DNA from: an uncultured Acidobacteriota bacterium
GTDB lineage: Bacteria; Acidobacteriota; Terriglobia; UBA7540
NCBI GenBank assembly: GCA_963804995.1
Contig: CAWDSK010000006.1
Location: 1,984,001-2,048,000, forward strand
Reading direction: 5' to 3'
Length of the DNA: 64,000 nucleotides
Shown one piece after another: positions 5,491 through 15,075 of this stretch; positions within the stretch are counted from its first letter, which is position 1, and each line of letters begins with the position of its first letter. The notes under the pieces were generated by a model. It was given only the letters and a program-made list of their open reading frames with translations. It was not told the origin of the DNA and did not search any database. Both the position numbers and the translations under genes were made by a program.

Positions 5491-5808
5491 ATGGCCATGA
5501 ATAGTGGAGTTCTCACTGTAAGTGACACCCTCGATGTTCACGCATTTCCCGTAGATGCGCAGAACGCACTTGAGTCAGGGAATGTCCCTTCTTCTTCTGT
5601 CCGGGACGAGGCCATTCGAGCTCGGCTCGCCGACGTTGCCCAGCAAGAGGTAAGGCGTCGACGCTTGCTGGAGATATTGAGAAGACCGACTCCCGCTTGG
5701 AATCCTGACGACCATCCCGACATCGACGCGGCGGGCGGTGCCGCTGAATGGGTGAGGAAGCTACGCAGTGAGGCAGAGCGGGGATTTGAAAGGCGCACTC
5801 GAAACTAA
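5491..5808 (+). CDS. Putative antitoxin (VapB-like by position)
   Basis: Immediately upstream of a PIN toxin. C-terminal 'W..DDHPDI..G..EWVRKLRSE' pattern is typical of antitoxin tails. Confidence 0.55.
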   Translation: MAMNSGVLTVSDTLDVHAFPVDAQNALESGNVPSSSVRDEAIRARLADVAQQEVRRRRLLEILRRPTPAWNPDDHPDIDAAGGAAEWVRKLRSEAERGFERRTRN

Positions 5809-5816
5809 GAGCGGGA

Positions 5817-6206
5817 ATGATCATACTTCTTGATACTTCTGTTATCATCGATGCCCTGCGCATACGGCGTGGCCGGCGCGAGTTTTTGGACCAGAGAAAC
5901 CAGGCCGGTGACACGCTCGCGTGTTCTGCCGTTAGCGTGGCGGAAGTCTACGCCGGGATGAGACCCAACGAGGCGGCTGCCACGGAGGAATATATTGAAA
6001 ACCTGGTCTGTATCGAAGTTACTCAGGAAATTGCGCGAACGGCGGGTAGCTTGAAGTACGCGTGGGAGCGCAAGGGAGTCACCATCGACATCCCGGACGC
6101 TATCATTGCCGCAACGACTCTTAATTTCAATCTGTACTTGGCTACGGACAATCTCCGGGATTTTCCCATGCCGGAATTGAACCATCTCAACCTCCCGACA
6201 ACTTAG
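5817..6206 (+). CDS. vapC: VapC family PIN-domain toxin
   Basis: Motifs 'ILLDTSVIID', 'SAVSVAEVYAG', 'DAIIAAT', 'TDNLRDF'. Confidence 0.9.
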   Translation: MIILLDTSVIIDALRIRRGRREFLDQRNQAGDTLACSAVSVAEVYAGMRPNEAAATEEYIENLVCIEVTQEIARTAGSLKYAWERKGVTIDIPDAIIAATTLNFNLYLATDNLRDFPMPELNHLNLPTT

Positions 6207-6212
6207 ACCGTT

Positions 6213-7604
6213 ATGCCCACTCTAACTTTTCTCGGTGCCACCGGCACGGTTACCGGTTCAAAGTATCTGCTGGAAGCCGGCGGCGAACGCCTGATGATCG
6301 ACTGCGGACTTTTCCAGGGCGACAAGGAATTGCGGCTGCGCAACTGGAACCCGCTGCCCGTGCCCCCCGCGAGCATCCAGTGGTTGGTGCTGACGCACGC
6401 GCATCTCGACCACGTCGGATATATTCCCCGCCTGGTGAAAGATGGTTTTCGCGGGCAGATCCTGGCGTCTTCTGCCACCGTGGATATCACCAAAATCGTG
6501 CTTCCGGATTCCGGGCATCTCCAGGAAGAAGACGCGGAGTTCGCGAACAAGAAGGGGTTCAGCAAACACGCCCCGGCCCTGCCGCTCTATACATATGAGG
6601 AAGCTTTGAAGGCGCTTGAATTTCTTCGTGCCGTGGACACCAACCAGCCCCTGGAGCTTTCTACGCATTTCTCCCTGCGTTTTTTCTTTGCCGGCCACAT
6701 TCTAGGTGCGCGGATGGTGGAAGTGACGGTCCGGGAAAACGGCACCACCAAAAAGCTGCTCTTCTCCGGCGACCTCGGCCGCTTCCCACAGTTGATCATT
6801 CCTGAACCGGTGGTGCCGGAAGACAGGTTCGATTACATGCTGCTGGAATCCACTTACGGCGACCGCCTGCACCCGCAGGAAGACATTGGCGCGCGCCTGG
6901 CTTCCGTTGTTGAAGACACCGCCGGGCATGGCGGGACCGTGGTGATTCCTTCCTTTGCGGTGGGGCGCACGCAGGAACTGCTCTACCTGTTTCGCGAATT
7001 GATCGAAGATAAAAAGCTGCACTCGCTTCCCATCCATGTGGACAGCCCCATGGCGATCGACGTGACGAATCTTTACATGAAGCACGCCGAGGATCACTCC
7101 CTGATATTGGAGGCGCTGGAAGAAAAGGGAATCAAACCCTTCTCGCCCCCCAACTTGCACTTCGACAAAACCGTGGATGAGTCGAAGCAGCTCAACGATG
7201 CGCGCTACCCGACGGTGATTATCTCGGCCAGCGGTATGGCGACAGGGGGGCGCGTTGTGCACCACCTGGAACGCTGCCTGCCGGATCATCGCAATACGGT
7301 TTTGTTCGTAGGCTTTCAGGCAGCGGGAACACGGGGCCAGGCGATCCAATCGGGCGCTCAAGACATAAAGATGTACGGGCATGAAGTGCATGTGCGGGCA
7401 CGCATCGAGACTATTGAGAACTTGAGCGCCCACGCCGACTATGGTGAAATCCTCGCCTGGCTTAAGCGATTCAGCAAGGCGCCGGGGCGGACCTTTATGG
7501 TGCATGGTGAGCCGAAGGCTAGCGAAGCGCTGCGGCAACGCATTGCGCAGGAACTCCATTGGGATGTCACGGTGCCGACGTATCTTGAACGGGTGACATT
7601 GTGA
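6213..7604 (+). CDS. MBL-fold beta-CASP ribonuclease (RNA specificity domain)
   Basis: Motifs 'THAHLDHVG', 'AGHILG', 'SGDLG', 'ESTYGDRLH', 'SASGMATGGR', 'LSAHAD', 'VHGE'. Confidence 0.93.
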   Translation: MPTLTFLGATGTVTGSKYLLEAGGERLMIDCGLFQGDKELRLRNWNPLPVPPASIQWLVLTHAHLDHVGYIPRLVKDGFRGQILASSATVDITKIVLPDSGHLQEEDAEFANKKGFSKHAPALPLYTYEEALKALEFLRAVDTNQPLELSTHFSLRFFFAGHILGARMVEVTVRENGTTKKLLFSGDLGRFPQLIIPEPVVPEDRFDYMLLESTYGDRLHPQEDIGARLASVVEDTAGHGGTVVIPSFAVGRTQELLYLFRELIEDKKLHSLPIHVDSPMAIDVTNLYMKHAEDHSLILEALEEKGIKPFSPPNLHFDKTVDESKQLNDARYPTVIISASGMATGGRVVHHLERCLPDHRNTVLFVGFQAAGTRGQAIQSGAQDIKMYGHEVHVRARIETIENLSAHADYGEILAWLKRFSKAPGRTFMVHGEPKASEALRQRIAQELHWDVTVPTYLERVTL

Positions 7605-7637: not shown

Positions 7638-8225
7638 CTAGGCGCCTGCCGATGCACCGGGGGTCGCGCCGGCCGGAGCGAGACCAAGCTGGCTTGCGAT
7701 ATTACGCATCGCGGCTATGCAGAATGTAATATGTTCATCCAGGGGCACCCCTAGTTCCTCGGCGCCCTTGGTAATGTCCTCGCGGCTGACGGAACGGGCA
7801 AAGGCTTTGTCCTTCATTCTCTTTCGTACCGACTTCGCTTCCAGGCTCACAATCCGGTCCGGGCGGACCAAGGAACAAGCCGTAATGAAGCCCGCGACCT
7901 CATCACAGGCAAAAAGCGTTCTGGCCAGAAGGGTGTCGCGGGGAACTCCCGTGTAATCCGCGTGACCCAGAATGGCACGGCGAATTTCTTCCGAAACGCC
8001 TCTCTCCTTGAGAATCTCACTTCCCTTCAGCGGGTGGTCGGGAGCGTTTGGATACATCTCGTAGTCAAAATCATGGATCAATGCGACCACGCTCCACTTT
8101 TCCTCGTCTTCACCAAACTTGCGTGCATAGGCAACCACGCAGGCTTCCACGGCCAAGGCGTGCTTCCGCAAGTTCTCATTCTGTGTGTACTCGCAAAGTA
8201 ATTCCCACGCCGCTTCGCGATTCAT
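7638..8225 (-). CDS. HD/HDIG-domain metal-dependent phosphohydrolase
   Basis: 'MNREAAWELL..YT....LRKHALAVE', 'LIHDFDYE', 'ACDE..GFITAC.LVRP'. The real start is ATG 8225; the longer ORF call runs into the tRNA repeats. Confidence 0.88.
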   Translation of the reverse strand: MNREAAWELLCEYTQNENLRKHALAVEACVVAYARKFGEDEEKWSVVALIHDFDYEMYPNAPDHPLKGSEILKERGVSEEIRRAILGHADYTGVPRDTLLARTLFACDEVAGFITACSLVRPDRIVSLEAKSVRKRMKDKAFARSVSREDITKGAEELGVPLDEHITFCIAAMRNIASQLGLAPAGATPGASAGA

Positions 8226-8343
8226 GGTTTGCACCCCTTTCGGCAGAAGGCTGATTATACGCCGCGCGAGGCTTCGCTCCCAAGCCAGGAAGCGGTAGCG
8301 AAGGCCAAAGCGGATTTGCGCCGTTTGCCCGCACGGTCCTGCG

Positions 8344-8372
8344 TTGACAGGTTTTGAGAACTGCGATAGTTT
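8344..8372 (+). promoter_or_regulatory. Putative sigma70 promoter of the tRNA-Val array
   Basis: TTGACA (8344-8349), 17 nt spacer, TAGTTT (8367-8372); 14 nt upstream of the first tRNA-like unit. Confidence 0.55.
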
Positions 8373-8386
8373 GAAAAGGTTCTCGC

Positions 8387-8742
8387 AGGCCCGTAGCTCA
8401 GCCCGGTTAGAGCGGGCCGACCCGTCGGCCAGGTCTGGGGCGGGAGAAGCAGATAGCAATTCACAGACAGCACGTAGGCCCGTAGCTCAGCCCGGTTAGA
8501 GCGGGCCGACCCGTCGGCCAGGTCTGGGGCGGGAGAAGCAGATAGCAATTCACAGACAGCACGTAGGCCCGTAGCTCAGCCCGGTTAGAGCGGGCCGACC
8601 CGTCGGCCAGGTCTGGGGCGGGAGAATCAGATAGCAGTTCAGAGACAGCACGTAGGCCCGTAGCTCAGCCCGGTTAGAGCGGGCCGACCCGTCGGCCAGG
8701 TCTGGGGCGGGAGAATCAGATAGCAGTTCAGACACAGCACGT
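8387..8742 (+). repeat. Four tandem 89-bp tRNA-Val-derived units with the anticodon arm replaced by a palindrome
   Basis: Units start at 8387, 8476, 8565 and 8654. Each is AGGCCCGTAGCTCAGCCCGGTTAGAGCG + GGCCGACCCGTCGGCC + AGGTCTGGGG + a 35-nt linker. Confidence 0.95.
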
Positions 8743-8820
8743 AGGCCCGTAGCTCAGCCCGGTTAGAGCGCTACCTTGACACGGTAGAGGTCTGGGGTTC
8801 GAGTCCCCACGGGCCTACCA
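8743..8820 (+). tRNA. tRNA-Val(GAC)
   Basis: Cloverleaf: acceptor AGGCCCG/CGGGCCT, D-stem GCTC/GAGC, anticodon arm CTACC-TTGACAC-GGTAG, T-arm TGGGG-TTCGAGT-CCCCA, discriminator A, encoded CCA. Confidence 0.97.
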
Positions 8821-8831
8821 TTGGTTCCTTG

Positions 8832-9083
8832 ATGGCTTTCCTCTAAATCCTGGAGAGTCTGACAACAGGCCGCTTTTACATCGGTTCCACCAGCGATCTC
8901 GACCGCCGCATCGAGGAGCACCAGCGAGGGCACACGCCGTCCACGCGAGGCCGCGGCCCGTGGAAACTCGCTTATCGCGAATCCTACCCAAGCTTGCGCG
9001 AGGCTCGCAAACGCGAACTCGAAATCAAGTGCTGGAAATCCGCGAAGCTAATCCAACAATTGATGGCGAGCCAGCCCGGTTAG
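8832..9083 (+). pseudogene. GIY-YIG nuclease copy 1, with an in-frame TAA at codon 5
   Basis: Reads MAFL*ILESLTTGRFYIGSTSDLDRRIEEHQRGHTPSTRGRGPWKLAYRESY...EARKRELEIK.WKS...SQPG*. Same length as and colinear with copy 2, which has TAT at codon 5. Confidence 0.85.
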
Positions 9084-9136
9084 AGCGGGCCGCCCGGTCG
9101 GCCAGGTCTGGGGTTCGAGTCCCCACGGGCCTACCA
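9072..9136 (+). repeat. tRNA-Val-derived 3' segment (D-loop to CCA), anticodon arm replaced by GGCCGCCCGGTCGGCC
   Basis: CAGCCCGGTTAGAGCG-[palindrome]-AGGTCTGGGGTTCGAGTCCCCACGGGCCTACCA; identical to the tRNA outside the swapped arm. Confidence 0.92.
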
Positions 9137-9148
9137 TTTGGTTCCTTG

Positions 9149-9400
9149 ATGGCTTTCCTCTATATCCTGGAGAGTCTGACAACCGGCCGCTTCTACATCG
9201 GTTCAACCAGCGATTTCGACCGCCGCATGCAGGAGCACGAGCGCGGACACACGCCCTCCACGAGAGGTCGGGGCCCGTGGAAACTCGTCTATCGAGAGTC
9301 GTTCCGGAGTTTACTTGAGGCCCGAAGGCGTGAGGCGGAAATCAAGCGCTGGAAATCAGCAAAGCTAATCCAACAATTGATTGCGAGCCGGCCCGGTTAG
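9149..9400 (+). CDS. Small stand-alone GIY-YIG nuclease (83 aa), copy 2, intact
   Basis: MAFLYILESLTTGRFYIGSTSDFDRRMQEHERG..STR.RGPWKLVYRESF....EARRREAEIKRWKS, with the YIL/YIG, R, H and E catalytic pattern. True start is ATG 9149. Confidence 0.9.
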   Translation: MAFLYILESLTTGRFYIGSTSDFDRRMQEHERGHTPSTRGRGPWKLVYRESFRSLLEARRREAEIKRWKSAKLIQQLIASRPG

Positions 9401-9453
9401 AGCGGGCCGACCGGTCGGCCAGGTCTGGGGTTCGAGTCCCCACGGGCCTACCA
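9391..9453 (+). repeat. tRNA-Val-derived 3' segment, anticodon arm replaced by the perfect palindrome GGCCGACCGGTCGGCC
   Basis: GCCCGGTTAGAGCG-GGCCGACCGGTCGGCC-AGGTCTGGGGTTCGAGTCCCCACGGGCCTACCA. Confidence 0.92.
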
Positions 9454-9772
9454 TTACTTTCAACAATCTAGCAATCTCGCTTGCCTTTCGCGTTGCTCCA
9501 CATTCCTTCAATAAGTGCCTAAGTTCTTGCATCCACTGACCCACCTTGGCCACAACGACCCCACGCGCCAGAGGAACTCCCAACAATCCGGTCCTGAGTT
9601 GCGATGCGTTCGCCTGAGACAACCACGCTGGTAACATTGGCGCATATTTGAGCCCTCCCTGGGCAGGATGCCAGAGGAACGTACCAACCCGCCAATTGAC
9701 TAACACCGGGGAGCCGCCGTATGATCTTGAGAATTCCCAATTTGGAGATTGTCTCCGGAGGTTGTAGCACAT

Positions 9773-10129
9773 ATGGGCGTGCGGAAGCTGAAACCCAAAC
9801 CTGGAATTAATCTCCCCCCGATCAGCAAAGCGAAACTGGAGGAGCTGATTGAGGAAGCAACGGTAGACGCTTACAACGAAGAGGAACAGACGGTCGGGTT
9901 CCTTACGATGATGCAGGAGCACTTGGCGCTCCCTTTTTCGGTGAACCTTCTCGGTATTGATGCTGTGGTAGAGAAGATCGATATGACCCGGGATGGCTGG
10001 ATTGTGGCGATCTGCCGCCGGGGCGAAGTCCGACAGAAGATAGGAATCCTCGATCTGCCACTGCCAACGCCCGCACCAGAAGGCACGGAATGGATCGCAG
10101 CATATCATCACTGGCGCAGAGGGTTTTAG
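9773..10129 (+). CDS. CcbP-like 'calcium-binding' family protein
   Basis: Pattern 'LIEEATVDAYNEEEQ..GF..M.QEHL.LPF...LLG' and 'EWIAAY.HW'. GGAGG lies upstream of ATG 9773. Confidence 0.65.
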   Translation: MGVRKLKPKPGINLPPISKAKLEELIEEATVDAYNEEEQTVGFLTMMQEHLALPFSVNLLGIDAVVEKIDMTRDGWIVAICRRGEVRQKIGILDLPLPTPAPEGTEWIAAYHHWRRGF

Positions 10130-11272
10130 ATGAGCGAATACCAGTATTACGACTTCCGGGCGATAGATCAGGCGCTGACCAAGGCTGACATCGCTGCCCT
10201 GCGATCCATTTCCACGCGCGCCATAATCACTTCGACGAGTTTTACGAATCACTACGAGTGGGGAGACCTAAAGGCCGATCCCCTCAAACTTCTGGAAAAG
10301 TACTTCGACGCGTTTGTTTACGTCGCGAATTGGGGGACGCGAGAGTTCTATCTTCGACTTCCACGGGAGTTGGCCGACTACGGACAGCTCAAAGCTATGC
10401 TTCCCGGCGACGCCGCCCGTGTGCAAAGAGTTGGAAAACACCTGATCGTCGGTTTTGAAGCGCAGTCGGAGATGGATGACTGGGATGATGGCACCGGCTG
10501 GATGGGTTCTCTGCTGTCTCTGCGCTCGGACCTGCTGCGTGGCGACCGCCGCTGTCTTTATCTCGGATGGCTCCTGTGCGTGCAATGTGATGAATTCTCT
10601 GAAGAGGAACTGGAGCCTCCGGTGCCTCCCGGCTTGGGCCAATTGTCGGCTCCTCTCCATTCACTGATCGAGTTTCTTGGAATCGACGAGGACCTTGTCG
10701 AAGTTGCCGCATCGGCTTCAGCGCCGCTGAGCGCTGCCCCGAGCCGGAAGGAATTGGCGGAGTGGATTCAAAATCTACCCGAAAAGGAAAAGAACGATTT
10801 GCTTCTAACCGCTGCGTTGGAATCCGGTGAACGCGGGAAAATCGAATTTCTGCGGCGCTTTCAGCAACAAAATGCAGCACGAACCTTGGACGCACACGCC
10901 GCAATTAAACCCCGTACAGTCCACGATCTTGTAACTGCGGCCAAGACACGCGCAGAAGAGAGAACCCGCCGATTGGAAGCCAAGCGGGCAGCGGAAGCAG
11001 CGCGACAGAAAGCGAAGGACGAGGCCGACCGCGCACGCTATCTGGATCAACTGGAGAAAAGCGAAGGAGAGACTTGGAATCGCATCACGGCACACATCCA
11101 GAAGCGGCAACCGAACGAATATGACAAGGCGGTCAGCTTACTGATCGACCTGCGCGATCTTGCCGTCCGCAAGCAACGTGTTTCTGAATTTCAGTCAGCG
11201 CTGGAGGAACTCCGCCATGCGCACGCCGCCAAGCACAGTTTTCTACGCCGGCTGGAGAAGGCAGAGTTTTGA
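10130..11272 (+). CDS. Conserved hypothetical protein (MSEYQYY-type)
   Basis: 380-aa ORF abutting the previous gene, beginning 'MSEYQYYDFRAIDQAL' and containing 'YFDAFVYVANWGTR'. Confidence 0.75.
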   Translation: MSEYQYYDFRAIDQALTKADIAALRSISTRAIITSTSFTNHYEWGDLKADPLKLLEKYFDAFVYVANWGTREFYLRLPRELADYGQLKAMLPGDAARVQRVGKHLIVGFEAQSEMDDWDDGTGWMGSLLSLRSDLLRGDRRCLYLGWLLCVQCDEFSEEELEPPVPPGLGQLSAPLHSLIEFLGIDEDLVEVAASASAPLSAAPSRKELAEWIQNLPEKEKNDLLLTAALESGERGKIEFLRRFQQQNAARTLDAHAAIKPRTVHDLVTAAKTRAEERTRRLEAKRAAEAARQKAKDEADRARYLDQLEKSEGETWNRITAHIQKRQPNEYDKAVSLLIDLRDLAVRKQRVSEFQSALEELRHAHAAKHSFLRRLEKAEF

Positions 11273-14802: not shown

Positions 14803-15075
14803 TGCGAGTTGTTATCTCTGAATCCGCCTTGAGAACATTCTACACTCACTCTTGCGGTTTTGGGGATAGAGCGAAACGCCGCGTGGGTAGTGTCTCAGCC
14901 TGAGGACGTAGCGGCGAGTTTACCTCGCCATAGGGCGGCGTCCCGATCAAATCGGGATGAATGCCGCCGCCTCTACAGCAAACTGCGATACTACTGCCGC
15001 GTGAGGGTGTCGCCCAGGAACGAATCGAGAAGAAATTTCCTGAAACCATTTATGGGAACTGGATTCCCCCCCAAC

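Follow-up and report, generated by a model that had tools for sequence, protein, structure and literature searches.

Palindromes in the anticodon-arm slot of partial tRNA-Val(GAC) copies beside a GIY-YIG gene: candidate recognition hairpins of a likely selfish nuclease cassette

Why should six partial copies of a tRNA gene, clustered around two copies of a small nuclease gene, each carry a palindrome exactly where the anticodon arm belongs? This question is raised by a locus of an uncultured Acidobacteriota bacterium that lies in a 64,000-nt stretch of DNA, here called the window. A preliminary description had reported a precise swap of the anticodon arm in six copies with identical junctions, and each of the six was confirmed at the place given for it (Table 1): in partial copies of tRNA-Val(GAC), the palindromes occupy exactly positions 27-43 of the tRNA. 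Every one of them is flanked by GGTTAGAGCG on one side and by AGGTCTGGGG on the other, the sequences that enclose the 17-nt anticodon arm CTACCTTGACACGGTAG (8771-8787) in the intact tRNA-Val(GAC) gene, which is the sole one found in the genome by ARAGORN. Hairpins 1-4 have the same sequence, hairpin 5 is GGCCGCCCGGTCGGCC, with a C.T mismatch at pair 6, and hairpin 6, GGCCGACCGGTCGGCC, is a perfect palindrome. The arms are 7 bp long around a 2-nt centre and are predicted to fold as 6 bp with a 4-nt loop. The characterization of the element as a 16-nt GC palindrome is accurate for this locus, but 16 nt is a local variant, since 51 of 65 related copies measure 17 nt, the length of the anticodon arm.

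Table 1. Features of the tRNA-Val(GAC) locus in the window
Feature	Positions	Strand	Basis or remarks
Inferred tRNA promoter (TTGACA, 17 nt, TAGTTT)	8344..8372	+	kept directly 5' of the intact tRNA in empty-site relatives, e.g. L198, L202, L194
Four 89-nt tandem units without nuclease	8387..8742	+	tRNA 5' 28 nt, hairpin, AGGTCTGGGG, 35-nt spacer
Hairpin 1, GGCCGACCCGTCGGCC, in anticodon-arm slot	8415..8430	.	sequence match
Hairpin 2	8504..8519	.	sequence match
Hairpin 3	8593..8608	.	sequence match
Hairpin 4	8682..8697	.	sequence match
Intact tRNA-Val(GAC)	8743..8820	+	ARAGORN; Rfam 67.8 bits
GIY-YIG copy 1, broken	8832..9083	+	TAA at codon 5 (8844-8846), at the invariant Tyr5 position
Partial tRNA copy with hairpin 5	9072..9136	+	D-arm 3' side (with nuclease TAG stop), hairpin at 9088-9103, tRNA 3' 33 nt with CCA
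GIY-YIG copy 2, intact, 83 aa	9149..9400	+	Pfam PF01541; Y5, Y16, G18, R26, H30, E62 present
Partial tRNA copy with hairpin 6 (9405-9420)	9391..9453	+	sequence match
Original tRNA-gene 3' flank	9454..9562	+	directly after the intact tRNA in empty-site relatives L194, L195

A nuclease cassette inside a tRNA gene

The intact tRNA gene separates two classes of plugged copies. In the upstream array, units 1 and 2 are identical and units 3 and 4 differ by one base (a 2+2 pattern); these units have neither the T arm nor the 3' acceptor strand. Downstream, two units of ~317 nt each consist of a short leader, a GIY-YIG gene, the end of the D arm, a hairpin and the 3' 33 nt of the tRNA, and have no 5' acceptor strand. 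The last codon and the stop of the nuclease gene (GGT TAG; Gly, TAG) are tRNA D-arm letters. All hairpin copies lie 3' of the inferred tRNA promoter and on the sense strand; a consensus promoter scan did not detect that promoter. A CRISPR-like reading of the 89-nt array was rejected because its spacers are near-identical. The ~35-nt spacer (8441-8475 and its repeats) looks homologous across five genus members (the present one and L191, L192, L193, L199) and does not match the promoter-proximal leader, and the hairpin type varies among the relics.

The product of gene copy 2 matches PF01541 with an E-value of 2.6e-14. In 109 aligned sequences, among the 120 matches listed, Y5, R26 and E62 are invariant and Y16, G18 and H30 are conserved at 90% or more; the predicted model has a pLDDT of 87.5 and its nearest folds are UPF0213, HIGLE and Slx1. 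Judged by profile, predicted fold and the catalytic Tyr/Tyr-Gly/Arg/His/Glu set, all of which are present, it is a protein of the GIY-YIG superfamily. Homing-endonuclease profiles match residues 1-33 only and stay under the NCBIfam cut-off, and the predicted model shows nothing beyond a bare 83-aa domain, too small to accommodate a separate DNA-binding domain. The relatives listed by a protein search limited to proteins of 45-146 aa carry Acidobacteriota labels. The two gene copies share 84% of their DNA sequence; on the nuclease tree copy 1 groups with relatives (support 87), with informative sites mixed, and the pair may reflect either an old duplication or two stacked arrivals. The TAA of copy 1 may come from a sequencing error.

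The genus was sampled with 29 genomes, 23 of which yielded a full tRNA-Val(GAC). In two of the loci, L194 and L195, the sequence that follows hairpin copy 6 here directly follows an intact tRNA, which means that the cassette lies within the tRNA gene, whose 3' part is duplicated. Of 22 further genomes tested, one (G006) has the nuclease in the tRNA-Val flanks fetched. G015 has upstream units without nuclease, as do G003 and G019, where the units are decayed and their hairpins are of other types. The preliminary description had held that ordinary att-site duplication does not produce such copies, and this stands: at tRNA-Val in the genus, att-type duplicates lack a plug, and their usual starting point is gene position 34. 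Here the duplicate comprises D arm, plug and 3' 33 nt instead of a plain 3' end, and no integrase-sized ORF lies between the tRNA copies. We describe the cassette as a stand-alone gene for an 83-aa GIY-YIG protein plus a hairpin-plugged piece of tRNA, with one intact tRNA kept; two cassettes, one of them broken, are present at this locus.

The exact plugged copy occurs in three of 61 genomes (G000, which is the genome studied here, G006 and G045), and these are the three best nuclease matches. A search of the 7.55-Mb genome for the GTCGGCC-type palindrome, proposed in the preliminary description, returned six places only, all of them tRNA copies. The plugged tRNA-Val pattern had no match in viral contigs, which hold ten protein relatives (the best two at 49%), and plasmid and phage collections gave no protein match; among the collections searched, no vehicle for the cassette is known.

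Related loci were taken as the best 80 of 508 and the best 80 of 498 matches, 160 in all and some redundant. Among these best 160, tRNA-Val(GAC) lies just 5' of the gene in 72 of the 103 loci with at least 60% identity and enough upstream DNA, and in 71 of these 72 the intact tRNA is 8-25 nt from the gene. A hairpin copy follows within 40 nt 3' of the gene at 81 of 113 loci with at least 60% identity, many of the remaining 32 having damaged hairpin copies when inspected by eye. Two layouts recur among the best 160: tRNA, nuclease, plugged 3' copy (79 loci), and plugged 5' copy, nuclease, tRNA, with the hairpin 5' of the gene (8 loci). Within the main clade the distance from stop codon to hairpin is fixed, the stem starting 4 nt after the stop. 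A perfect core also stands beside the gene in 13 of 21 loci labelled outside Acidobacteriota, under ten phylum labels (these are MAG labels, and some bins may be wrong). At L009 and L011, another GIY-YIG subclade lies beside tRNA-Arg-like and tRNA-Lys pieces, where CCGCC/CCGCG palindromes replace the 5' side of the anticodon arm only.

Several other observations concern the surroundings and the tRNA complement of the genome. An ORF at 10130-11272 and the downstream flank match DNA beside tRNA-Val in L194/L195, and window positions 9454-11272 likely represent the terminal part of an integrated island. At 5491-6206, a PIN-domain gene likely forms a VapBC-type toxin-antitoxin pair with a small partner upstream of it; next to them lie genes for an MBL/beta-CASP RNase (6213-7604) and for an HD protein. 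Elsewhere in the genome there are a 25-28-nt piece of tRNA-Val at C5:1241607; 26 tRNA genes on one strand at C5:1304904-1309125, Val(GAC) not among them, which probably form a mobile tRNA array; and the 3' end of tRNA-Phe in three exact copies of 50 nt, at C6:815591, 843299 and 886824, which we read as stacked integrated elements.

Conservation of the hairpin and of its junctions

The hairpin has outlasted the synonymous signal of the gene beside it. Over 44 full-length genes (946 pairs), four-fold sites of the nuclease differ at 0.69, which is saturation, versus 0.058 for the hairpin arms; the loops are identical in 9% of pairs, and their length ranges from 1 to more than 10 nt across related hairpins. 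Since most loci have a single plug, with no second copy to correct from, we read this conservation as selection on the cassette, and the earlier proposal that the hairpin is selected holds in this form. The hairpin is also tied to the gene in space: over 143 non-redundant loci, perfect CCG-core hairpins number 2.1-2.5 per kb within 200 nt of the gene versus 0-0.14 per kb beyond.

A structure-blind extraction that used tRNA flanks as anchors recovered 116 inserts from 85 loci. Of these inserts, 104 pair at six or seven of seven positions, and positions 3-5 read CCG in 103; the 12 that pair poorly look mostly mis-anchored and were left in the counts. Mismatches show no G.U bias (5 G.T versus 14 others). 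In 28 distinct 17-nt plugs, 96.9% of cells are paired (slid controls, 11-54%), and the covariation analysis suggested in the preliminary description gave two-sided changes in 27 cells (0 of 500 shuffles). DNA palindromes can self-correct, and two-sided changes in a palindrome can arise by template switching without selection; because of such self-correction, and because kin share changes, covariation alone is weak evidence. Pairs 3-5 (CCG/CGG) are nearly invariant and pairs 1, 2, 6 and 7 covary; an invariant core with covarying outer pairs is the pattern of a hairpin that is read by its sequence. Hairpin subtype tracks nuclease subclades, which is not proof of a match because kin share labels.

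The junctions are as constant as the core. Of 106 hairpins with their start at tRNA position 27, 82 have position 43 as their end and match the 3' junction exactly over 6 nt. This junction is common to eight tRNA types (Val GAC, Ala GGC and TGC, Pro TGG and CGG, Asp, Met and Leu), some of which (Asp, Met, Leu) have unrelated flanks. The CCG core was also seen replacing or interrupting a T arm or a D arm, or nested in itself, downstream of the gene at L181/L183 and at L099, L106, L107, L094 and L108.

The tRNA sequence around the plug follows the neighbouring gene. In 44 of 65 non-redundant loci the plugged 3' part is the same as in the adjacent tRNA, rare alleles included, versus 14% across loci, and on the D side the last 10 nt match in 53 of 65. 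Three loci (L083, L119, L148) keep a different, well-formed T arm in the plugged copy, as expected of donor-derived or not-yet-converted copies. The 12 host tRNA alleles require 23 changes on the nuclease tree versus at least 32 in 200 shuffles, which is partial co-descent with repeated switching; as the alleles keep signal on that tree, much of the spread may be vertical.

The wider core as a dispersed repeat

A wider form of the core, YCCCGAY-N-RTCGGGR, has 322 copies in this genome (4 for the reversed control), the highest number in the 61 genomes, and the tRNA-flanked GGCC type has six copies at one locus. The dispersed copies are of TCCCGA/CCCCGA types, unlike the GGCCGAC of the resident nuclease. 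In six out-of-family genomes with a nuclease match below 1e-15 the core is found 2, 18, 21, 89, 96 and 101 times, compared with 0-12 times in the other 18; inside the family the relation between core number and nuclease is loose, one genome (G032) having 248 copies and a weak nuclease match. The preliminary description had named an abundant REP, inserted at random and without junction conservation in other tRNA-GIY-YIG loci, as the finding that would speak against a selected hairpin. The related core is indeed abundant and REP-like, but its placement is not random and the junctions are conserved in those loci.

Much of this material is compound. As many as 128 of 297 perfect cores lie within an outer inverted repeat versus 21 for random sites. 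Eight repeat families were tested with exact flanks, and in four of them the slot of the core is occupied by a different hairpin in other copies (core versus other hairpin: 7 vs 82, 6 vs 12, 5 vs 2 and 3 vs 5); the remaining four have the core or its variants alone. That the core shares a slot with other hairpins in non-tRNA repeats points to arm-for-arm exchange beyond tRNA genes. Many of the ~300 dispersed YCCCGAY hairpins, two of which are in the window at 14941 and 25436, are nested in GTAG-tagged or CCCTCTCC-type composite repeats, within which hairpin slots are interchangeable. Arms of the GGCCGAC/GTCGGCC type with 6-nt loops were noted away from tRNA genes at C2:651643, C3:273860, C5:10478 and C9:175883 of this genome, three of them GTAG-tagged. 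The genome has 14 Y1 transposase matches, none in the cassette; the core occurs within 600 nt of two of these loci and is absent there from the other 12. A RAYT may have multiplied the composite repeats that hold the core.

Recognition hairpin and competing explanations

Taking these observations together with what is described for related nucleases, we think it fairly probable that the six palindromes are the recognition hairpin of a likely selfish nuclease cassette that resides in the tRNA-Val gene and is directed at single-stranded DNA. The preliminary description had offered the hairpin as either a recognition or an immunity mark; recognition appears to be the best reading, and immunity is weaker because the intact target tRNA stays by the gene and immunity would not need a single CCG core across eight tRNA types. 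By analogy with SsnA, the nuclease would bind the hairpin in single-stranded DNA and nick beside it; by analogy with SegB, such nicks would set off recombination with the intact tRNA gene, and this recombination would renew the flanks, multiply units in tandem and let the cassette enter tRNA genes that are still empty. Both layouts could derive from a single unit (5' part, hairpin, 3' part, nuclease), permuted according to the side of the arm on which it recombined with a tRNA gene, and the four upstream units may be tandem-amplified, non-autonomous relics. Counting against this reading are the other hairpin types among the dispersed copies, the core-rich genome G032 with its weak nuclease match, the host-allele signal on the nuclease tree, the want of a vehicle or an excised form in the collections and contigs searched, the place of the protein outside the GTCAY-flanked clade described below, and template switching as another source of two-sided changes. 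The least certain part of the mechanism is the initial swap at a new target; a weaker suggestion is that the foot of a stem-loop is cut and then repaired from a hairpin-bearing strand, which would give a precise swap at a new tRNA type or another repeat.

The closest functional parallel is Ssn with its NTS/SRM hairpins (SsnA, CDD cd10448; PMC11893778). According to the available text of that source, SsnA binds its hairpin on single-stranded DNA and cuts a few nucleotides upstream; like the cassette protein, it is a single GIY-YIG domain of less than 100 aa, and the conserved, sequence-specific hairpin that flanks it spreads as a dispersed repeat as well. The cassette protein, at 83 aa, fits the Ssn size feature (a single domain of less than 150 aa). 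Unlike Ssn as described there, the cassette lies in tRNA genes and replaces an arm, its protein is of another clade and its motif is another one, with no GTCAY repeat; 'tRNA' and 'cd10449' have no occurrences in the main text of PMC11893778. Eight GTCAY-flanked proteins, including the other small GIY-YIG protein of this genome, form a separate clade (SH-aLRT 97) with 32-36% identity to the cassette protein over 83 columns. We infer from sequence that this clade corresponds to cd10448 and that the cassette protein is outside it, so that the analogy with Ssn is not one of direct inheritance. The gene for that other protein (C6:1226340-1226579), flanked by five GTCAYTCT repeats, is likely Ssn-type with NTS-like repeats; no GTCAY repeat occurs at the cassette locus. 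The published SRM pattern matches neither the cassette locus nor this Ssn-like gene and is hence a poor control. By this analogy, the cassette likely works like Ssn/NTS.

Other known systems share single features with it. SegB of phages T4 and T6 is, in the available text of PMC2330249 and PMC13096335, a free-standing GIY-YIG gene beside tRNA genes; it recognises a T-arm motif of tRNA genes (PMC2330249) and drives tandem amplification there through recombination (PMC13096335). It differs in cutting double-stranded DNA at a 27-bp T-arm-motif site, in phages, with no cognate hairpin or plugged copies described in that text, and the extra DNA-binding domain of the Seg type was not found in the bare 83-aa protein. 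Stand-alone Slx1-like/UPF0213 proteins (PDB 1zg2, 1ywl) are the nearest solved sequence and fold and share the minimal domain without the C-terminal Asn of the UvrC/I-TevI lineage; for them the available part of PMC1564403 gives a predicted repair role and no link to tRNA genes or hairpins. IS1272, as far as PMC5678879 was available, is the nearest precedent for stem-loop replacement: a resident stem-loop is swapped for incoming DNA, a whole IS with its transposase that enters without duplication, whereas the cassette inserts a hairpin of 15-30 nt only and tRNA parts are duplicated. Own hairpins around the enzyme gene, non-autonomous copies and a restored tRNA recall REP/RAYT systems, as discussed in the available text of PMC11893778, and tRNA-integrating islands; the cassette differs from both in having no HUH transposase or integrase. 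By the features tested it is not a Seg endonuclease, a REPtron, an att site or a tRNA-like RNA. In REP/RAYT systems an enzyme gene lies between its own hairpins and there are non-autonomous copies, and at tRNA islands the tRNA gene is restored after insertion. The combination of plugged tRNA and nuclease was not found in the literature searched, outside whose scope were most subscription journals and the supplements of PMC11893778, which list GIY-YIG gene flanks.

The alternative that survives best, though we consider it unlikely, is homing with an immune allele, in which intact tRNA-Val genes would be the target of the nuclease, as with SegB, and the hairpin would be a resistant substitute that guards the repair template. 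It would account for the tie of the clade to one tRNA just upstream, has a precedent in the T-arm recognition by SegB (PMC2330249), and repeated cuts in the intact gene would also homogenise the flanks and amplify units. Yet the intact target persists within 25 nt of the gene at all but one of the 72 loci among the best 160, resistance would need loss of the site alone and not a single CCG core shared by eight tRNA types and across ten phylum labels, non-tRNA repeats contain the core as well, and the bare domain leaves no room for a separate DNA-binding domain.

Somewhat less probable still is that the hairpin is a REP-like module moved onto spare tRNA copies by a Y1/RAYT transposase or by replication errors, with the nuclease as a passenger. 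The abundance of related cores over the control, the Y1 matches and the many cores in GTAG-tagged composites with several hairpins per slot are all in its favour, but few Y1 loci have a core nearby, the hairpins cluster close to the GIY-YIG gene with almost none at greater distance, all 3 genomes with the exact type also have the nuclease, and subtype follows subclade, with the reservation about kin made above.

A function at the RNA level, as a non-decoding tRNA decoy or as a stem past the stop codon that controls nuclease mRNA, seems improbable. The position of all copies in sense orientation behind the inferred promoter, the arm-like length of most plugs and the fixed stop-to-hairpin distance in the main clade are what it would explain. 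The tRNA mimic put forward in the preliminary description finds no support: no copy class in the window has both acceptor strands, and the mismatches lack a G.U bias; moreover, folding z-scores run from -0.75 to +0.02 versus -2.95 for the intact tRNA, loops vary widely in length, and layout 2 puts the hairpin upstream of the gene. At this locus Rfam reports only the intact tRNA at gathering score, mascRNA-like matches being below the cut-off, and the ability of GGCCCG in copy 6 to pair with the 3' strand of the acceptor was taken as chance because most relatives are without it.

An assembly artefact, which the near-identical tandem units and the want of an independent contig across the array might suggest, is very improbable in view of the 2+2 difference pattern, the divergence of the two genes and the recurrence of the architecture in dozens of independent assemblies. 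An independent peat metagenome contains 8200-8375 with no differences and 9178-9389 with two. The comparison with sequencing runs was made on contigs (best share 0.25, with no cover of nuclease copy 1); among them no excised form of the cassette was seen, and one has a joint from 8380 to 8722, which may come from a relative without the array.

Beyond the recognition hairpin, we put forward more tentatively, as a possibility that we hold to be rather less than even, that a minimal GIY-YIG family reads DNA shape and exchanges stem-loops: a resident hairpin, whether anticodon arm, T arm or REP arm, would be taken out at its foot and the family's own CCG-core hairpin put in. It would be a mobile element of ~320 bp without transposase, integrase or reverse transcriptase that seeds hundreds of repeats across many phyla.

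The plugged copies explain false tRNA calls beside real ones, being called Gln, Pro, Arg or Ala, and the cassette is a possible origin for an abundant REP-like repeat. If the recognition reading is true, this would be the second nuclease-hairpin pair after Ssn/NTS, and its natural specificity variants (GGCCGAC, TCCCGAT, YCCCGGC and GGCCGCG) would be usable as tools for single-stranded DNA. It would also give a concrete substrate and a testable job to the large stand-alone Slx1/UPF0213-like family, which so far has only a predicted role in repair.
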